A DNA stretch of 49,749 nt, taken from the NCBI GenBank assembly GCA_017462455.1, contig JAFTRC010000022.1:1-49749 (forward strand). The letters are read 5' to 3'. The position numbers and the translations under genes are program-made. This document shows positions 4,719-13,754 of this stretch, piece by piece. The stretch is from Bacilli bacterium. GTDB taxonomy: Bacteria; Bacillota_I; Bacilli_A; RF39; UBA660. Every line of letters begins with the position of its first letter. Positions within the stretch are counted from its first letter, which is position 1. The notes below the pieces were generated by a model. The model was not told the DNA's origin, did not search any database, and was given only the letters and a program-made list of their open reading frames with translations.

Positions 4719-5399
4719 TTAATATTGGCTTTCCCCATCTTGACTCATCAAGTTAACTTCGCTAACACCTTTAATCTTTAGTATTTCATTTACAAATTCT
4801 TTATCTTTTTTTACTTTTAACTCATATATATAACTTGATTCTTTACTAGATAAATTTTCTGACTTTAATTTATATTTTATTTTATAACTATTAAGTATTA
4901 TTTCTATATCCCTAGTAGTTACATTTTTAAAATATATAACAAGTATATAAGGTGTCTTTTTCTCAGGTATAATATCAAAGAATAACATTGCTATAGCAAG
5001 TATTATAGCTAATACTATAGCCATAGAATAAACCCCTGCACCTATAATAATACCATTAGATATACTCCAGAATAAAAACAATAAATCTCTTGGTTCTTTT
5101 ATAGCGGTTCTAAATCTTACTATAGAAAGTGCTCCTACCATACCTAATGATACAGTAATATTTGCTTGCATTGATAGTACTATAGCTGCTGTTATAATTG
5201 ACATTAAAGACATTGATATATTAAATTTTTTTGAATATATAACGCCTTTTGTAGTTAACTTATATATGAAAAATACAAATAATGAAAGTAAAAAAGCATA
5301 TATAAGTGTGACTGCGATAGTTGTTATTGATACATTAGCTGAAAAGTTATTTAAAAAACTATCTTTAAATATATCATCAAAAGTTACTTTTAAAATCAT
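4719..5399 (-). CDS. DUF4956 family membrane protein
   Basis: SLGMVGALSIVRFRTAIKEPRDLLFLFWSI signature. Confidence 0.92.
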   Translation of the reverse strand: MILKVTFDDIFKDSFLNNFSANVSITTIAVTLIYAFLLSLFVFFIYKLTTKGVIYSKKFNISMSLMSIITAAIVLSMQANITVSLGMVGALSIVRFRTAIKEPRDLLFLFWSISNGIIIGAGVYSMAIVLAIILAIAMLFFDIIPEKKTPYILVIYFKNVTTRDIEIILNSYKIKYKLKSENLSSKESSYIYELKVKKDKEFVNEILKIKGVSEVNLMSQDGESQY

Positions 5400-5400
5400 A

Positions 5401-6081
5401 CTAAAACCTCCTGCTTAAATCATCTATACAATTATTAAATTTAGAATATGAAGTTTGTTCTAAATGATTTAATTCTAATCTAAATCTAATAAAATCTGGA
5501 ATTAATTCATTATATTTTACTTCTAATATTTTATCTTTTAAATAATGTACTCTTTTTTCTTTATTAAATAAATTATTATATTTATTCGTATGTCTTATAT
5601 TATAATCGAGAGTTATTCTAACATTCCCTAGTTTATATACATATGGTATTCTATCATACTCTATACAAATTACAGGTCTCAATAATTCTGTTTTCATTTT
5701 TAATATAAATTCATTTAATAATGGTTTATTATCCTTACTTATTTTTACATTACCACTTAATATATTATCTAAATCATCTCTTGTTATTTTAACGCTCTTT
5801 TTATTTGTTAATCCATTTACTTTAGATTTCTTTTCTAAATTAATATATGAATCATCATAATTATAAAATCTTATTCTATATTTCCATCTTTCGCTTATTC
5901 CATTTTTAACTTGGTTATATGACGTTTTATTATAGTTATCAAAATAAATACTTGAAATAGTATAAAAGTCATCTTTACAATTAGAATCTTTTTTAATTAA
6001 TCCTCTTAGATTATTGTTAATTATACAAAAATCACTATCTGTAATTTTATATTTTAATTCTTTTCTAAATTTTCTATTCAT
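5401..6081 (-). CDS. VTC (polyphosphate polymerase) domain protein
   Basis: RKELKY, Y.ISSIYFD, KYRIRFY, LEKK, YDRIPY, RITLD, ILEVKY, SYSKF motifs of the VTC/CYTH fold. Confidence 0.9.
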   Translation of the reverse strand: MNRKFRKELKYKITDSDFCIINNNLRGLIKKDSNCKDDFYTISSIYFDNYNKTSYNQVKNGISERWKYRIRFYNYDDSYINLEKKSKVNGLTNKKSVKITRDDLDNILSGNVKISKDNKPLLNEFILKMKTELLRPVICIEYDRIPYVYKLGNVRITLDYNIRHTNKYNNLFNKEKRVHYLKDKILEVKYNELIPDFIRFRLELNHLEQTSYSKFNNCIDDLSRRF

Positions 6082-7594
6082 TTTCTAAACTTTCTATATA
6101 ATCATCAAAGAATTCTAATCTCTTGTGTATCCAAGTTCTAACTTCTTCTATTTCTTTTTCCCAAGCATATTCTCCCCAAACACTAGAATCTCTTATAATC
6201 ACACCCTTAGATAAATTATTTATATATTCATCTAATAAAACATTTATATATTCTTCAGTTAAAATATTTTTTCTAAGAGACCAATATCTATCTATTAATA
6301 ATTGATTTGTTTTTGGAGCATCTTGATGATAGAACATACAGGATAATTTATCATATCCTAAAAGAGATATTCTATCCTCTCCTAAATCAAATCCATAACT
6401 AAATTCCATATCCCAAGGTTGAATATAAATATCACTTGATAAAGTATCAAAATAAAAATAGTTATTATATCCCATACAATTATCTATATTACTTGTAAAT
6501 GCATTGAAAATTGTAATATCTATATAATTTTTTAAATTAAAAGAGGATTCTATTACTTCATCGGTTATTTTAATTTCAGAATCATAATATTTTCTTATGC
6601 TCAATAGTAATTTTTTCCAAGTATCTGAATAAAAATCACTATTGTTTGGATATTTTATTTCAAAATTAGCATAACTATATTCATCTATATTTTTATATGC
6701 AATATTTGAATCGATATCAACCCAACCAATCATTTTAATTACTGCGCTCGTATCTTCTGTACTTGTTTTAGGTAAATTTAAATTTTTCCTGTTTATTGGT
6801 TCTGTAAATACATATAACCCCATATATTCATTGTTTATAAATACTTCAACAAATTCACTATACACATCTACACTAGTAAAATCATTAGAAATATCATTCC
6901 ACAATTTAGTAGATAAGACATTTCTTATTTTAGATTCATCTCTATAATTAGCATCTAAAATAAAAGAGTCTCCATTATAAAAATTAGAAATTTGTATATT
7001 TTTTTCATCAGTATACTTGTTATTATACATATTAATTCTATATGATTTTTTAGGTAACTCGGAAGAAGAAGCACCTCTAATATGAATCATACTATTGCTA
7101 GTTATAACTTTATTAACTTCTTCTGAATTTATATATTTAAAAGTAGATTCTACATCTTCTGTTGTTATAGAACCTTGTGTTGTTATACTAATTAATGGAA
7201 GGTTTGTTAATTGTATTTTTGTTTCGTAATAATATTTATCGTTATATATAATTATATCTATAGGTTCATCATACCTAACATCAATTATATTAAAAGTCTG
7301 ATCTTTAATTTTATATTTATATTCATTATCTAAATCTAATTTTAATACATAACTATTATTTTCATAATCATCTGATACATTATAATAATATATATTATTG
7401 TTTTTATCATAAACTGTATCAATATTATTTATTGTAAGAGAATTAATTAAATTTTCTTTTTGTTTTCTACCTTGTTTTATTTCTTTTATGCTTAAATATG
7501 ATAAAGATGTACCAAATATACTACATAAAATTAGAAATATTAAAATTAATATTAGCAATATAAAAACAGCTATTTTTAACTTATTACTATTCAT
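6074..7594 (-). CDS. CotH kinase family protein with N-terminal membrane anchor
   Basis: IRGASS..PKKSYR, D.SKIRN, VEVFINNEYMGLY...EP, NNYFY, PWDMEFSYG motifs. Confidence 0.88.
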   Translation of the reverse strand: MNSNKLKIAVFILLILILIFLILCSIFGTSLSYLSIKEIKQGRKQKENLINSLTINNIDTVYDKNNNIYYYNVSDDYENNSYVLKLDLDNEYKYKIKDQTFNIIDVRYDEPIDIIIYNDKYYYETKIQLTNLPLISITTQGSITTEDVESTFKYINSEEVNKVITSNSMIHIRGASSSELPKKSYRINMYNNKYTDEKNIQISNFYNGDSFILDANYRDESKIRNVLSTKLWNDISNDFTSVDVYSEFVEVFINNEYMGLYVFTEPINRKNLNLPKTSTEDTSAVIKMIGWVDIDSNIAYKNIDEYSYANFEIKYPNNSDFYSDTWKKLLLSIRKYYDSEIKITDEVIESSFNLKNYIDITIFNAFTSNIDNCMGYNNYFYFDTLSSDIYIQPWDMEFSYGFDLGEDRISLLGYDKLSCMFYHQDAPKTNQLLIDRYWSLRKNILTEEYINVLLDEYINNLSKGVIIRDSSVWGEYAWEKEIEEVRTWIHKRLEFFDDYIESLENE

Positions 7595-7659
7595 AAAATC
7601 AAACTCCCATTTGTTTTGTTTTATATTATACCATAAAAAACAAAAAATAGAATAATAAA

Positions 7660-8580
7660 TTATTCTATTGTTATAATTCTTTCTTGAGTATCTGTATTAC
7701 CACTCGAATCTTGGGCTATGTATGTTATCGAATATTTTCCAACTTCACCAAATTTTATTGTTCCGCTTGTAGTAATATTGCATACGCCACTATTATCTGT
7801 ACAGGTGACTCCCTCTAATAAATCAAATTCAGTAACACTTGTACTTAATGTATTATTATCTGGAAGAGTTAATTGAGGATTCTCCTCATCGGTAATAATA
7901 ATATATCTAATTACCATATTAGAGTATCCATTATCATCTACAACTGTATAATATATTTTATATATTCCTAATTTGCTTGTATCTACGCTTTCCACAGAAC
8001 TATCATTTAAAGTAATACTAACATAAACTCTAGAAGTCAAATCAGTACCTTCACTAGACTCAGCAGTATAATTAACTTTAGTGTATGGTTGATTTATATC
8101 AATTTCTTCTACATAATTGCCATCTGAATTTTCAGGTAAATTTATATCAAAAATTATATCAGGTTTAAGAGAAGAATCAAGTGTTTGATTTAAAATTACT
8201 GTATATAAATAATCTCCATTTAATTTAGAATTAGAATTAGAATATTTATATCCTGCGCCTACATTTTCTATACTTATAACTAAGTTATTAGGATACAGCT
8301 CTTTTGTTTCTGGATTTTTAATATCAGCAGCTATCAATCCTTCATTTTTTAATTGCGCGAGAGTTATATAAGTAGTTTTTCCTCTTTCAGGCAATATGTC
8401 TAATTGTTTTAGCGATAAATCATATGCTGCATCTAAAATTGTATTTATTTGTTCATTAGAAATAGTTTCTTTACTTTTAACTAGAATATGTTCTACAGCT
8501 GGAAAAATTAAAATAAATATAACAGCTAATATCACTATCACAGCCAATAATTCTACTAAAGTGAAACCTTTATTTTTCAT
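7660..8580 (-). CDS. Type IV pilin-like protein with two C-terminal Ig-like (DUF5011-type) domains
   Basis: Start moved to ATG 8580 (SD GAGGTG): MKNKG|FTLVELLAVIVILAVI; VDTSKLGIYKIYYTVVD and GKYSITYIAQDSSGN repeats. Confidence 0.8.
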   Translation of the reverse strand: MKNKGFTLVELLAVIVILAVIFILIFPAVEHILVKSKETISNEQINTILDAAYDLSLKQLDILPERGKTTYITLAQLKNEGLIAADIKNPETKELYPNNLVISIENVGAGYKYSNSNSKLNGDYLYTVILNQTLDSSLKPDIIFDINLPENSDGNYVEEIDINQPYTKVNYTAESSEGTDLTSRVYVSITLNDSSVESVDTSKLGIYKIYYTVVDDNGYSNMVIRYIIITDEENPQLTLPDNNTLSTSVTEFDLLEGVTCTDNSGVCNITTSGTIKFGEVGKYSITYIAQDSSGNTDTQERIITIE

Positions 8581-8591
8581 AATACACCTCA

Positions 8592-9137
8592 CTATTTGTT
8601 AAATATACTTAATATACGAGCGAAATTAAATAATATTTGATTACTTTTTTTCATAGCAAAGCCTTTTTCAATAGCTTTACCACCTATAGTTAACGCGGAT
8701 ATAATTCCCATAATTGTTAAGGTCACTAACATATCATTTAAATTAGTTTTTTCAATTATTTTTAGAGCTATAACAGCACCAGTAGATCCTGAAATGATAC
8801 CACAGATATCTCCTACTACATCGTTACAAAAACTAGCAACTCTATCAGCATTCTTTTTTAATCTTACTGCCATTTTTGCTCCTTTAACTTTTCTTGCTGC
8901 CATTGAATGAAATTGTGACTCATCTGCAGCTGCTACTGCAACACCTACCATATCAAAAACAACACCTATAAGTACAAATACTAAAGTTAATATTATCCCA
9001 AAAAATATATTTAAATTCGGTATAGCAGTTTCTGATATAAAACTAAAAGCTACTGATATTACAAATGATAAAATTATTATTTGTGTTATCCATTTATAAT
9101 CAACTAAATTTTTTTTCTTCCTTTTTTCTCTTGACAT
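8592..9137 (-). CDS. oapA: OLE-associated protein OapA (CNNM/DUF21-like transmembrane protein)
   Basis: FDMVGVAVAAADE..FHSMAARKVKGAK.A..L.KNADRVASFCNDVVGDICGIISG, including the DxxxD motif; lies just downstream of an OLE RNA. Confidence 0.88.
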   Translation of the reverse strand: MSREKRKKKNLVDYKWITQIIILSFVISVAFSFISETAIPNLNIFFGIILTLVFVLIGVVFDMVGVAVAAADESQFHSMAARKVKGAKMAVRLKKNADRVASFCNDVVGDICGIISGSTGAVIALKIIEKTNLNDMLVTLTIMGIISALTIGGKAIEKGFAMKKSNQILFNFARILSIFNK

Positions 9138-9141
9138 ACAT

Positions 9142-9348
9142 TCACCTATTTAATTTTATTTCATTATTTTGAATATTATTTGGGATTTCTTTCTTTTGAT
9201 TTTTTATTCCTAATACTAGAAAAATTGTTAGTGAAATTACAAGAATATATAATATTACTACTATAACTATATAATTTTTACTTGTATCTTTTTTATCGAT
9301 ATCAGCAAAATCATTTGCCATATCTTTTGCATCTATATCGTTATTCAT
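9142..9348 (-). CDS. Small single-pass membrane protein (68 aa), unknown function
   Basis: Start moved from 9420 to ATG 9348 (SD AGGTGA). Acidic N-terminus, ~22-aa hydrophobic helix, then K/N-rich tail. Confidence 0.7.
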   Translation of the reverse strand: MNNDIDAKDMANDFADIDKKDTSKNYIVIVVILYILVISLTIFLVLGIKNQKKEIPNNIQNNEIKLNR

Positions 9349-9364
9349 CCTATCACCTATTATA

Positions 9365-9393
9365 ATTTTAACACAGATTATTAATTTTAACAA
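9365..9393 (-). promoter_or_regulatory. Putative sigma-A promoter for small ORF-oapA-pilin
   Basis: TTGTTA-17 bp-TAAAAT with TG extended -10, directly after the OLE terminator. Confidence 0.6.
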
Positions 9394-9401
9394 TGATAAA
9401 A

Positions 9402-9428
9402 CAAAAAAAGAAAAAGGCATAAGCCTTT
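9402..9428 (-). terminator. Intrinsic terminator after OLE RNA
   Basis: AAAGGC-TTAT-GCCTTT followed by TTCTTTTTTT on minus. Confidence 0.7.
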
Positions 9429-9439
9429 TAATACTATAT

Positions 9440-10018
9440 ATGGCGTTAACACAGTTAACTTTACGTCTTAGGTCAAGTTGGATTTCCCTAAATCTTACTT
9501 ATCGTTACCAATAAGCGGTTCCCCTTTAAAAGATTCAGTATATTGTTACCAAATATACTACTTGATTGCCACTTAGTACGCACTGCAATCCTATATTAAC
9601 AACACTCTAGGAGATTTCCTCACCATTTATTTATTATTAATTCTTTTTTGCAAACAGTATTTCATATTGCAAACTATGTAGATTCTAGCTATAAATTTAC
9701 TAGTTTGTTAACCAATAATCCCAACTACTCACGCAAGACAAGCTACACTACCCATAACTTTCGCCACAAGGTAGGTTTAATCCTAATTCGTATCTAGTCC
9801 ATCAGTATAAAACGTATAGGCCAAACACAAGTATAGGTCTCCACGAACGGTGGGTCATTTACATATGCCATTATGGATGCCCAACATTCTCATTTCCAGC
9901 ACTCACCCCTATCTGGGCGATAAAAGCAAGCACCAAAAGTTTCACAGATGTGCTCTTTGACGGATTTTTAGCCCCGCCTTCATAATAAATATAATGACTA
10001 GAATAATGTGCCATCAAC
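9440..10018 (-). ncRNA. ole: OLE RNA (ornate, large, extremophilic RNA), ~580 nt
   Basis: ORF-free, GC-enriched stretch with conserved OLE blocks in the expected order: GAAGGCGGGGCUAAAAAUCCGUCAAAGAGCACAUC, AAAUGACCC, GUAGUGUAGC, UGAGGAAAUCUCCUAGA, AGGAUUGCAGUGCGUACUAAGUGGCAAUC, AAAGGGGAACCGC. The 5' and 3' ends can pair (AUGGC/GCCAU), there are two GUAA-tetraloop hairpins (9497-9516, 9537-9559), and oapA is nearby downstream. Ends approximate. Confidence 0.92.
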
Positions 10019-10025
10019 AATTACC

Positions 10026-10054
10026 ATGCTATCATAAATTTAAATTTGTGTCAA
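10026..10054 (-). promoter_or_regulatory. Sigma-A promoter of OLE RNA
   Basis: TTGACA-17 bp-TAGCAT with TG extended -10; predicted start site ~10018-10019. Confidence 0.75.
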
Positions 10055-10111
10055 ATTAACATAAAAAGTTAAAATTTAGTTCATTCTTATTGCTTTTTTA
10101 TTAATTATATG

Positions 10112-11641
10112 CTAATTAATCATATTAATGAACTCATTCATTGTAATGTTATCAAAAATAACATATCTTGGTATTTTATATTTATTATTATTTCTACTAG
10201 CTTTTGTATTACCTCCTACAAATGCCACTTTAAAATCTAATTCTTCTAAAACTTCCATAGCTCTACTATTATATGTATAAAATGGAAAACAGAAGGATTG
10301 TGTAGACTGTACTATATCAATTGATTTTTGAAAATCGGCTTTTAACTCTTCTTTATTTAAACAATTGATTTGATAACCACAACTAGGAGACGAAAAATGT
10401 ATATCATATCCATGTGATTGTACATCTAAATATTCCGATCTATAATTTTCTATATCCCACCAAGCAGTTATTAAAAATAATGTTGCATGTTCTTTATACT
10501 CTTCTAATGCCTTAATTAAAAAATTCCCATTATGTGCGCCTGTACCATAAGCACCATCATCTATAGTTAATAATACTGATTTTTCAGGCAAACTGATTCT
10601 TCCATAATACCAATCAACAAATTCATCAATTGTTAATGTTTTATAATTATTATCATTTAAATATTGTAATTGTTTCCTAAATGAATCCATATCTAAACAA
10701 ATAGATTCGTTGCAAATACCTGCTTCTTCATAGAAAAAATGATAATTCAATACAGCTATTCTTTGATTTGATGAATCTTTAATACCATTTATGGCGTCTT
10801 TAAATTGATCTATATTAGTATTATTATATACTACATATTTATAATAATTTTTATCACTTCTTTTAATTTTATAAATATCTTCTGTTATATTATATTCATT
10901 TACTTCTTCTTGCGTATTATATTTATATCCATATTCATCAAATAAATTAATTACTTCTTCATCAGCCCCTAAATATATTAATAATATTGAATTTTTATTT
11001 AAATCTATAGAATTATTTTTCCAACTAATAAATTCATCTAATAATATAGTAGTATATTTATTTTCTTTTAAATAATCTAAATATATTTTTAAGTTATCTT
11101 TAGTAATATTATCATTAAATTCAACAAAACTAATTGATTCTAACCTGTCTTTTTCACTATCCAATATTTCATAATTATCTTTAATATAATATATATCATT
11201 CATAAATTCAACATAATAGTTACCATCTTCAATATATAATAATTCAAATATATTTTTTTTATCTATATTAATAACTTCTTTATTGTCTTTATATAAAATA
11301 GTAGGTTTAGTTACTATACTTTTAACACTATAATATTTTTTTTCTAATTCTGTTTTTTCAGTTTCTTTTATATTTTTATAATATATATAATAATCATAAC
11401 CTTCTATTTTATAATATTGTTTATTTATTTTTTCTAATTTTAATTGTATATCTTTATTTACTGTACCAATTTTATTAAATTTAGAATTTTTATATTCATA
11501 TATTTCTTGTTTTTTAGTAGTTGTAACATATTCACTAAAATTATCTTTTATTACTTTGTTTTTATAAATTAATACACCTACAACACTCATCAATATAATA
11601 AGTATCAATATAAATAATGAAATAATTATTTTTTTCTTCAT
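10112..11641 (-). CDS. Membrane-anchored polysaccharide deacetylase (CE4, IcaB/PgaB-like)
   Basis: VLNYHFF, VLLTIDDGA, QSHGYDIH, FCFPF, IPRY motifs; N-terminal TM helix. Confidence 0.88.
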   Translation of the reverse strand: MKKKIIISLFILILIILMSVVGVLIYKNKVIKDNFSEYVTTTKKQEIYEYKNSKFNKIGTVNKDIQLKLEKINKQYYKIEGYDYYIYYKNIKETEKTELEKKYYSVKSIVTKPTILYKDNKEVINIDKKNIFELLYIEDGNYYVEFMNDIYYIKDNYEILDSEKDRLESISFVEFNDNITKDNLKIYLDYLKENKYTTILLDEFISWKNNSIDLNKNSILLIYLGADEEVINLFDEYGYKYNTQEEVNEYNITEDIYKIKRSDKNYYKYVVYNNTNIDQFKDAINGIKDSSNQRIAVLNYHFFYEEAGICNESICLDMDSFRKQLQYLNDNNYKTLTIDEFVDWYYGRISLPEKSVLLTIDDGAYGTGAHNGNFLIKALEEYKEHATLFLITAWWDIENYRSEYLDVQSHGYDIHFSSPSCGYQINCLNKEELKADFQKSIDIVQSTQSFCFPFYTYNSRAMEVLEELDFKVAFVGGNTKASRNNNKYKIPRYVIFDNITMNEFINMIN

Positions 11642-12123
11642 AATACTTTTTCTATCTCCTTTTCTACTAATTTTCTAAATTTATTAGCATTACTACTATA
11701 CTTTTTAGGTTTAAAAGTTTTTGCTTGTTTTAAAAGTTCAGGTAATTCTTTTTCATTATTTAAAGCTAATATATAGCCACTATCACTAAATTGATTTATT
11801 ATTTGCAATTGATGATCATTGATGTGTTCCTGGTATTTGGCTAAACGTGGAACTGCTATTACTACTTTATTGTTTTTTAAACCACTTGTTATAGTTCCTA
11901 CCCCACCATGAGTTATTAAAAGATTACACTTTTTTAATAATTCATCAAATTCTTCCATAGGTATTAAATCAAATATTTTCAGGTTTTTTGATTTATAATC
12001 TGAAGAATAACCTGCTTGTACAATAACTTCGTCTTTAATATAACCATCTTTTATAGCTTTATCTACAGCTTTTAACAACCTATAAAATTTTTTATCTTGA
12101 GTTCCTAAAGTTACTAAAATCAT
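11638..12123 (-). CDS. pssE: PssE/Cps14G (Alg13-like) glycosyltransferase subunit
   Basis: Start moved to MILVTLGTQ (TAATG overlap with pssD); ITHGGVGTI, VPRLAKYQEHINDHQ. Confidence 0.88.
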   Translation of the reverse strand: MILVTLGTQDKKFYRLLKAVDKAIKDGYIKDEVIVQAGYSSDYKSKNLKIFDLIPMEEFDELLKKCNLLITHGGVGTITSGLKNNKVVIAVPRLAKYQEHINDHQLQIINQFSDSGYILALNNEKELPELLKQAKTFKPKKYSSNANKFRKLVEKEIEKVL

Positions 12124-12608
12124 TAATAAATCCACCCCCCATATATAGCATTTGGATAAAATTCTAACATACTTTCCCACTGTACTATAAATACATCAGC
12201 GAATTTATAAACTATTTTTCCTGTTTTAGTGGGTGCTGTACTATTAGCAAATGTTTCTATAAATATTAATTTTTTTCTAAATAGTTTAGCCAAACAACAC
12301 ATAGGACCTACATTGTGAGCTCCTGTCGTAATAACAACACTTGGATTTACTTTTATAATTAAATATAATGATATCCAACAATTTATGAACAATTTAAAAG
12401 GATAAAGTATTTTTGATAAAAAACTAGTATATGAACCTGAAATTAAAAAGTTAACTTTTTTAGGATATTTTTGTTTTAAAGATTTGTTACTTTTGGTATT
12501 TTCAGTTACTATATAACTATCATATTTTTTAAATAGTGGTTCTAATTGCAATAATTCATTTAAGTGTCCACCTGTACTCGCTATAAATAATATTTTTTTA
12601 TTTTTCAA
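12123..12608 (-). CDS. pssD: PssD/Cps14F (Alg14-like) subunit
   Basis: ASTGGHLNELL, VITTGA, FIETFA, FIVQWESM..YP.A.Y.G. Confidence 0.9.
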   Translation of the reverse strand: MKNKKILFIASTGGHLNELLQLEPLFKKYDSYIVTENTKSNKSLKQKYPKKVNFLISGSYTSFLSKILYPFKLFINCWISLYLIIKVNPSVVITTGAHNVGPMCCLAKLFRKKLIFIETFANSTAPTKTGKIVYKFADVFIVQWESMLEFYPNAIYGGWIY

Positions 12609-13722
12609 TTAAATCAATCCATTCTTGTTTTATATTTTGTGACAAATACTTATTAGCTTTTTTATAAGCGTTATTTCCCATAATAATTCTTCTATTTTCA
12701 TCATTTATTAAATTAATTATTTTTTTTGCCATTTTATTTTTATCTCTATTATCTATTAGATAACCATCCCAATTATTACTTATTATTTCTTTTGCACCAT
12801 TCGCACTATCAAAAGCTATACAAGGAATTCTATAACTCATAGCCTCTAATAAAACGATTCCAAAAGATTCATTTAAAGAGCTCATAACATATATTGAAGA
12901 TTCTTGGTATAGTTTATCTAATTCTTTAGAATTTTTATATCCTAATAATTTTATACTGTTATTTAATTTTTTTTGATTTATTAAATCCTGTAATGCATCA
13001 AATTCACTACCATCACCTACAATATTAAGATTCCAATCAGGGTATTTTTTTAATACTATATCAAATATATCAATTAAATCATTAAATCCCTTTATTTTTT
13101 CTAATCTACCTACGGATATAATTGTTTTGTTATTAAGGTCTGATACTTTATTTGGTAAACGTTCTATAGAGTTAGGAATACAAATTACAGGACATTTAAC
13201 CAATGATTTATAGAATTTTTTTAATTCATTAGATACTACAACAAAATAGTTTAATCCTTTTGTAGAATCTACTATCTTTTTTATATACTTTTTGTTGTTA
13301 TCATGGTGATTGTGCTCCGTAGCTATTTTTATAGCATTTTTATTTCCATATTTACCCAACCATTTATTATGAATATCTCTTGTACTAATTATTACATGAC
13401 TATCACAATTTTTTATATAATTAATCATTTTATATTTTTTTAAATATAAAATTTTTACACTCTTATATAGTTCTTTTATTAGAGTAATTAATTTTAATTT
13501 TTTTAAACTTTTTTCTATTTCTTTTTTATTTGGTTTTAAGTTATTAATTAAATACTTAACTTTAACCTTTTCATTCAATTTAAAAAAAGGCGTATCGAAG
13601 ATCTTATATGTAGAAATTATTTCAATTTCATAATCATTACTCAAACTATTGGATAAATTAGTTATAAATTTTTCTATTCCACCATAACCTAAGTGTAGAG
13701 CTAATATTGTAATCTTCTTCAT
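12598..13722 (-). CDS. GT4 family glycosyltransferase
   Basis: GYGGIEK, SVGRLEKIKG, ESFGIVLLEAMS; start moved to MKKITIL. Confidence 0.9.
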   Translation of the reverse strand: MKKITILALHLGYGGIEKFITNLSNSLSNDYEIEIISTYKIFDTPFFKLNEKVKVKYLINNLKPNKKEIEKSLKKLKLITLIKELYKSVKILYLKKYKMINYIKNCDSHVIISTRDIHNKWLGKYGNKNAIKIATEHNHHDNNKKYIKKIVDSTKGLNYFVVVSNELKKFYKSLVKCPVICIPNSIERLPNKVSDLNNKTIISVGRLEKIKGFNDLIDIFDIVLKKYPDWNLNIVGDGSEFDALQDLINQKKLNNSIKLLGYKNSKELDKLYQESSIYVMSSLNESFGIVLLEAMSYRIPCIAFDSANGAKEIISNNWDGYLIDNRDKNKMAKKIINLINDENRRIIMGNNAYKKANKYLSQNIKQEWIDLIEK

Positions 13723-13754
13723 TTTACCACCCAATATAATTATACCATATTTAC

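Follow-up and report, generated by a model that had tools for sequence, protein, structure and literature searches.

M, a fast-evolving small membrane protein predicted from the ole-oapA junction in one genus of uncultured gut Bacilli, and its possible role as an accessory of OapA

The DNA analysed here (the window, 49,749 nucleotides in full) belongs to a MAG of 1.2 Mb that is 82% complete. On its minus strand, a full-length OLE RNA gene, a small open reading frame (ORF), oapA and a gene for a pilin-like protein follow one another (Table 1). The protein of the small ORF is labelled M in this report, and its translation (68 aa) is MNNDIDAKDMANDFADIDKKDTSKNYIVIVVILYILVISLTIFLVLGIKNQKKEIPNNIQNNEIKLNR. 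Between the M stop codon and the ATG of oapA (9137) there is a gap of 4 nt (ATGT), and the start of the pilin-like gene overlaps or abuts the oapA stop codon; that is, the intercistronic gaps of the M-oapA-pilin series in the window are 4 nt or an overlap. The product of the pilin-like gene has a prepilin leader (KGFTLVELL) and Ig-like domains. Within the 2.8 kb that were scanned (7500-10300), the hairpin at the 3' end of OLE was the sole terminator-like site. The preliminary description of this DNA had pointed out, in the space separating ole from oapA, a small ORF with a good Shine-Dalgarno (SD) sequence and an end only 4 nt from the oapA start, and a product with an acidic N-terminus, one transmembrane (TM) helix and a K/N-rich tail. 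The sequence confirmed both, and the helix was also recovered by AlphaFold2 (residues 3-53).

Table 1. Positions in the window of the features of the OLE, M, oapA and pilin-like genes.
Feature	Position	Strand	Basis or details
Promoter-like TTGACA-17-TAGCAT with TG, for OLE	10054-10026	-	Consensus scan
OLE RNA gene, full length	9424..10030	-	Rfam RF01071, 383.3 bits, E = 3.5e-109, model positions 1-616
Terminator-like hairpin AAAAGGC-TTAT-GCCTTTT + T-run, OLE 3' end	9402..9429	-	
Promoter-like TTGTTA-17-TAAAAT with TG, just upstream of M	9365..9393	-	Consensus scan; putative function
TATAAT overlapping the promoter-like site of M	9364-9359	-	
Shine-Dalgarno AGGTGA, 4 nt before the ATG of M	9353..9358	-	Read from sequence
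M, small ORF, 68 aa + stop	9142..9348	-	ATG at 9348, TGA 9144-9142
M, acidic N-region with DFxDIxK motif (aa 1-25)	9274-9348	-	
M, TM span YIVIVVILYILVISLTIFLVLGI (aa 26-48)	9205-9273	-	
M, KNQKK box + K/N tail (aa 49-68)	9145-9204	-	
oapA, 181 aa	8592..9137	-	Pfam CNNM (CNNM/DUF21), E = 2.2e-8, 34.4 bits vs 28.4-bit cut-off
Pilin-like gene, third cistron	7660..8580	-	Pfam N_methyl (2.6e-6), Bact_surface_Ig-like (4.2e-16)

The genus of the window was sampled with 27 species genomes, 25 of which were searched for OLE. OLE was found in 23 of these 25, and oapA in 26 of the 27, with orthologues of 56-77% identity. Among the 26 oapA-bearing genomes, 22 contained an M orthologue that matched the M profile, started with ATG, lay immediately upstream of oapA and measured 44-216 aa; in all 22 the frame was open and conserved despite many substitutions and indels. 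The dN/dS ratio (Nei-Gojobori) was below 1 in each of the 11 pairs tested, amounting to 0.23-0.47 for the whole gene, 0.12-0.42 for the core formed by the motif and the TM helix, and 0.3-0.8 for the tail, and oapA in the same pairs showed 0.08-0.28. A conserved membrane-protein gene, present at the same position in relatives, had been anticipated, and these syntenic orthologues bear it out.

Homologs of M could also be identified beyond the sampled genomes. When the M profile was compared with 1.84 billion representative proteins, 86 clusters were recovered at E <= 1e-3 (51 of them at E <= 1e-10), and every member of the 86 was 52-172 aa long. A search of 5.8 billion proteins with the single M sequence returned only M itself and one relative of 70 aa. 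The first M alignment was too variable for pattern design. A pattern scan of GTDB genomes found two loci, both in uncultured Bacilli MAGs (one from goat colon, one from another gut sample), and no match was found in a scan of JGI metagenomes. From such sequence comparisons, M is almost certainly a real gene, and its predicted product is a fast-evolving single-pass membrane protein that is restricted to one genus of uncultured gut Bacilli with small, AT-rich genomes.

The hydrophobic span of M is single and covers about residues 26-48. Confidence of the AlphaFold2 model was highest across this span, with a mean pLDDT of 93 for residues 31-40 and 84 for residues 41-50. In the family as a whole, Leu-Tyr is invariant and one Gly nearly invariant in the TM helix; before the helix lies the motif (D/E)Fx(D/E)I(D/N/E)K, which is acidic and juxtamembrane, and after it a KNQK box. 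These residues (DFxDIxK, Leu-Tyr, Gly and KNQK) were kept across 108 sequences. The counts of K+R in the two flanks of the helix are equal (3.05 vs 2.93), and net charge slightly favors an orientation with the C-flank inside. N- and C-terminal tails vary freely. The M of the window is a short form, as is common, and about a quarter of the sequences (24 of 108) are long forms, which have an additional acidic, Asn-rich spacer and a conserved C-terminal peptide, (N/S)ILD(Q/Y)(I/L). The longest orthologue, of 216 aa (G001; L080 850-1500), carries about 140 aa of non-repetitive sequence beyond the TM helix, possibly a folded domain; the tails of the other long forms are of low complexity. In one protein of 172 aa found by the profile search (P0019), the M core is fused to a C-terminal segment resembling a histidine-phosphatase fold (...VLIVAHGAVVRALHF...), and this fusion could be real or an artefact of assembly or a frameshift.

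No family in Pfam or NCBIfam matched M at its cut-off, the best scores being 18 bits in Pfam (cut-off 29.1) and 16.1 in NCBIfam (cut-off 187). Membership in ETRAMP (PF09716), DUF6097, TMEM154, FliL or SAG1386/EF1546 was considered and rejected, because these sub-threshold matches covered the TM span only. An origin of M as a split-off or duplicated N-terminus of OapA was also rejected, on an hhalign probability of 3% over four aligned columns. The M motif superficially resembles an N-terminal extension of the type E-x-x-N-L-x-V-Q-T-R-R-K-E-K-K in the OapA of other genera. Such a basic extension of 15-25 aa was seen in the OapA of many other genera (L084-L111), with a recurring motif (for example, SEFENLLIQTEKKEK, ENLKVQTRRKEKK and LRNLEVQTRRKEKKKK), and the OapA of the window's genus is without it. 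The N-terminal class III signal of type IV pilins (G|F-T-L-x-E, followed by a hydrophobic helix) was absent from all 22 M orthologues and from the sampled representatives, and neither an N_methyl match nor a PilN/PilO-like domain was found in M by Pfam or NCBIfam; the downstream pilin-like gene has this signal.

Several conserved signals mark the boundaries of the transcription unit to which M appears to belong. In the genus genomes with OLE directly before M, a hairpin with a T-run was found at the 3' end of OLE in seven out of seven, with stem sequences that differ. Five of these seven OLE-adjacent loci had the block TTGTTAAAA...TGTTAAAATTATAAT-AGGTGAT before M, and the same promoter-like block precedes M also where a deacetylase gene lies upstream. 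The AGGTGAT element is conserved upstream of M orthologues. It should be noted that many database entries of M start with a spurious N-terminal extension ('IIIGD') as a result of the promoter-like block and AGGTGAT being read as coding sequence. At the other end, a pilin-like gene follows oapA immediately in 24 out of 26 genus genomes. Thus, M is probably the first cistron of an M-oapA-pilin unit, and the terminator, promoter-like block and AGGTGAT agree with its earlier placement at the head of the oapA operon. OLE RNA would stop at its own terminator, and a separate unit encoding M, OapA and the pilin-like adhesin would begin with M, which would be closest to the promoter and coupled in translation to the next cistron.

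The pilin of this unit is modular, about 305 aa long, with a prepilin leader and two Ig-like domains (loci L056-L081; window 7660-9137, minus strand). Its junctions with oapA in the genus are mostly overlaps or gaps of less than 10 nt, and a pilin-like gene also follows oapA in 2 of 28 other genera (L086 and L095). Prepilin peptidase was identified in 25 of the 27 genus genomes and PilB-type ATPases in all 27, so that pilins can be processed and assembled and this pilin is probably functional; the pilus machinery is encoded about 13 kb from the M locus or on other contigs. Relatives of the pilin-like gene have expanded greatly throughout the family, a genome of about 1 Mb having as many as 15 matches, and many of them are fused to large and differing C-terminal bodies (ORFs of 400-1300 aa).

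A downstream neighbour of M was visible in 33 contexts. In 28 of them, comprising the 22 genus genomes and six metagenomic contexts (L121/122, L123, L137, L138, L139 and L140), M lay immediately upstream of oapA, and this adjacency held where OLE was kilobases away or on another contig (G014, G007, G018, G021, G002, G003 and G006). In the remaining five (G022, G004, L119, L124 and L125/126), oapA was out of the operon and M stood directly before the pilin-like gene, which it overlapped by 8 nt in L125. These M-pilin cases formed three separate, supported clades among M-oapA-pilin relatives in the pilin tree (G022 with G004; L119/L124; L125/126), from which we infer at least three separate departures of oapA from the operon, with M kept beside the pilin gene each time. 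No context with M and oapA but without the pilin gene could be identified among those examined. Homologues mostly unlinked to ole or oapA had been named in advance as a finding that would speak against a role of M with OapA; unlinked homologues make up a minority, five contexts from at least three events, with the other 28 adjacent to oapA.

In L125/126, the backbone of the window, Alg14-Alg13-M-pilin-CotH-VTC-DUF4956, is present without the deacetylase, OLE and oapA. The syntenic region of the window (4719-13734, minus strand) reads GT4-Alg14-Alg13-(deacetylase-OLE)-M-(oapA)-pilin-CotH-VTC-DUF4956, the genes in parentheses being those missing from L125 and L126. This synteny suggests that OLE and oapA sit within a conserved gene cluster for surface polymers and adhesins.

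Some species of the genus lack an intact M. In G017 and G042, the promoter lies directly before oapA, which is followed by the pilin gene, and M is absent; of the two, G017 was examined for OLE and carries it. G015 (95% complete) has no orthologue of the Ig-like pilin and likewise no OLE, oapA or M; the module seems to be missing as a whole, or it fell in an assembly gap. In G014 (C4:70085-71421; L077), M is truncated to 44 aa and ends inside the TM helix, OLE is on a different contig, and the pilin gene that follows is shortened to about 245 aa, its match containing an in-frame TAA. This module may be decaying.

Outside the genus, the distribution of M differs from that of its neighbours. In a phylum-level sample, OLE was found only in the family of the window, and in an order-level sample, all of family f1, oapA was present in 65 out of 86 genera. 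Across 149 further genera of the family, the M profile matched nothing convincingly, the best score (27 bits) lying inside ORFs of 380-420 aa, and an M-like ORF was absent from all 28 OLE-oapA loci of other genera. In most of these 28 loci no gene-like ORF lies between OLE and oapA, which upholds the view that ole is typically followed directly by oapA. The exception is L092 (G043), with a multi-pass membrane protein of 330 aa inserted between ole and oapA. A soluble protein of 250 aa is inserted at the same place in L155 (G051), and a membrane-anchored polysaccharide deacetylase of about 418 aa occupies the ole-oapA junction in several species of the window's genus (L002, L005, L007, L012 and L013). 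Since other genes also occur between ole and oapA, the position of M alone is weak evidence of a functional link. Considering that OLE usually adjoins oapA in other genera, M probably arose at, or entered, the ole-oapA junction in the ancestor of the genus.

These data also bear on the suggestion that M could be a new component of the OLE ribonucleoprotein (RNP), which they support only in part. Co-occurrence with OLE and OapA across OLE-bearing lineages, as seen for Oap-type proteins, was not observed for M. Because M is restricted to one genus, missing in two species with oapA and kept beside the pilin gene after removal of oapA, its predicted place is not among the core OLE RNP subunits. 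A general role of M in the OLE RNP does not survive the comparison with 149 genera, the presence of oapA in 65 of 86 genera and the M-free loci of G017 and G042. We found no mention of an M-like protein in the published OLE papers that were consulted.

On the basis of the current results, we tentatively propose that M is a lineage-specific small membrane accessory and a physical partner of OapA, a reading by analogy that appears possible rather than probable. OapA is related to the Mg2+ exporters MpfA and CorC. As a small accessory subunit, M would insert into the membrane beside OapA and would stabilize or tune the CNNM-like OapA dimer, much as KdpF, AcrZ and MgtS act on their transporters. 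Its presence would be optional and specific to the lineage, and it would stand outside the core OLE RNP. The earlier idea of an additional membrane subunit or regulator of OapA thus stands in part: adjacency to oapA in 28 out of 33 contexts speaks for it, and the absence of M from G017 and G042 and its stay with the pilin gene in five contexts speak against it. The acidic N-region of M argues against direct RNA binding. We also performed a mirror-tree analysis with PilB, alone or together with a second ATPase, as the species proxy and with p values obtained by permutation. The partial correlation was 0.30-0.43 between M and OapA (p 0.03-0.005), 0.12-0.26 between M and the pilin (p 0.22-0.04; -0.03 when controlled for OapA) and 0.56-0.62, the highest of the three pairs, between OapA and the pilin. 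This slightly favors OapA over the pilin as the partner of M; a history shared by linked genes would account for it just as well.

Two other explanations are close rivals of a role with OapA. According to the first, the partner of M is the pilin-like Ig-domain protein or else the type IV pilus machinery; M would be a small membrane factor for holding, anchoring or presenting the pilin, and oapA would be an inserted passenger. M and the pilin gene are co-operonic in every context with visible downstream sequence, they remain direct neighbours, sometimes overlapping, after at least three independent removals of oapA, and L125/126 retain both on a backbone free of the deacetylase, OLE and oapA. 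Assembly of the pilin appears feasible with the peptidase and ATPases found in the genus, and the C-terminal peptide of the long M forms, placed after a disordered spacer, resembles a docking element. However, because M bears the promoter and SD of the operon, excision of oapA would leave M beside the pilin gene whether or not the two proteins are linked, and the persistent adjacency has a neutral explanation. In addition, no small TM ORF was found upstream of full-length pilin homologues at nine loci of other genera, the pilin gene is retained in G017 and G042, which have no M, and M has no prepilin motif or PilN/PilO-like domain. The residual M-pilin correlation is small and vanishes (-0.03, as above) once OapA is controlled for. 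This explanation is doubtful, though close in probability to a role with OapA.

The second explanation sees in M a young gene of restricted taxonomic range that has no particular partner and persists mainly as a leader cistron that sets downstream expression or as a generic small membrane protein, which may have been born de novo in the AT-rich spacer between ole and oapA. Consistent with this, no homologue was detected outside one genus and no family matched, length and sequence vary extremely (44-216 aa, with tail dN/dS up to 0.8), and the composition, rich in I, L, V, Y, K and N, is what AT-rich DNA is expected to yield. Moreover, M without exception comes first in its operon, behind a promoter and SD that are conserved, and is tightly coupled to whichever gene comes next, is dispensable in G017 and G042, and is truncated within the TM span in G014. 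However, the M core is under clear purifying selection (dN/dS 0.12-0.42), the residues conserved in 108 sequences go beyond what coupling would need, and the long forms retain a conserved C-terminal peptide. A partnerless M seems rather unlikely.

It is improbable that, in this lineage, M is a true extra membrane subunit of the OLE RNP beside the OapA dimer, which together with the co-transcribed pilin couples the OLE particle to a surface filament or adhesin. If this coupling existed, a single physical assembly would account both for the adjacency of oapA to the pilin gene, seen in 24 of 26 genomes, and for the co-variation that remains among the three genes. Judging by its features, the genome may belong to an RF39-like clade, in which case this extra subunit would occur where OapB and OapC are reported to be missing. 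Finally, although M is short and lies in AT-rich DNA, a chance, untranslated open frame is exceedingly improbable for an ORF that is kept in 22 genomes despite substitutions and indels, with dN/dS below 1 in all pairs, a conserved SD and 86 metagenome clusters.

To our knowledge, OLE RNA is among the largest bacterial non-coding RNAs for which a biochemical function is not known. The membrane protein OapA is its only partner known to be widely conserved. The reduced-genome gut clades RF39 and TANB77 have been reported to be without OapB and OapC (PMC11332333), which leaves room for other OLE partners and makes these clades natural minimal systems in which any extra partner is informative. If M binds OapA, as we tentatively propose, the part of the OLE particle that lies in the membrane could be approached through a small protein that is simple to mutate, and M would also hint at a connection of the OLE RNP with a pilin at the surface. 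Being confined to one genus, dispensable in some species and not obligatorily linked to oapA, M cannot explain OLE function in general. It also represents a clear case of a young, fast-evolving family of small membrane proteins left unnamed by standard annotation.

Comparison with known systems places M closer to some protein classes than to others. Like PilN, PilO and ComGG, M is small and bitopic; its gene can stand immediately ahead of one for a pilin, and PilD and PilB are encoded in the same genome. In contrast with these proteins, it has no prepilin G|FTLxE motif and no family match, is not encoded with the pilus machinery, and has no folded extracytoplasmic domain, except possibly in the G001 orthologue. 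The known OLE RNP proteins, described in Halalkalibacterium halodurans, are OapA, OapB (KOW, small beta-barrel) and OapC (YbxF/L7Ae) (PMC7936274, PMC9723947, PMC11332333), and OapA has been described as CNNM/MpfA-like (PMC11332333), with which our Pfam CNNM match agrees. M shares with the Oap proteins its place at the ole/oapA locus, whereas its confinement to one genus and its separation from oapA in some lineages differ from their correlation with OLE across Bacillota. The initial judgement that M does not resemble OapB or OapC is supported, M being membrane-embedded and acidic and the OapB/OapC type a soluble, basic RNA binder.

It is an established pattern that transporter operons begin with a gene for a small single-pass subunit; examples of small single-pass proteins that act with transporters are KdpF of KdpFABC, AcrZ with AcrB, MgtS with MgtA and MgtR with MgtC. 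M has no sequence relationship with KdpF, AcrZ, MgtS or MgtR, and its binding to OapA is a proposal. It also differs from the KdpF/AcrZ type in a far more variable length, in long acidic tails and, in the long forms, a C-terminal peptide, and in having a pilin-like operon partner. On the other hand, like all four it has one TM helix, and its short forms are well under 100 aa. Like the KdpF/AcrZ type, M is encoded alongside a multi-pass, transporter-like membrane protein and is dispensable in some relatives, and kdpF, like the M gene, is the first cistron of its operon. As a small protein with one TM helix in the operon of a multi-pass protein, M is a candidate for the class of KdpF, AcrZ and MgtS, which is one of function and not of homology.
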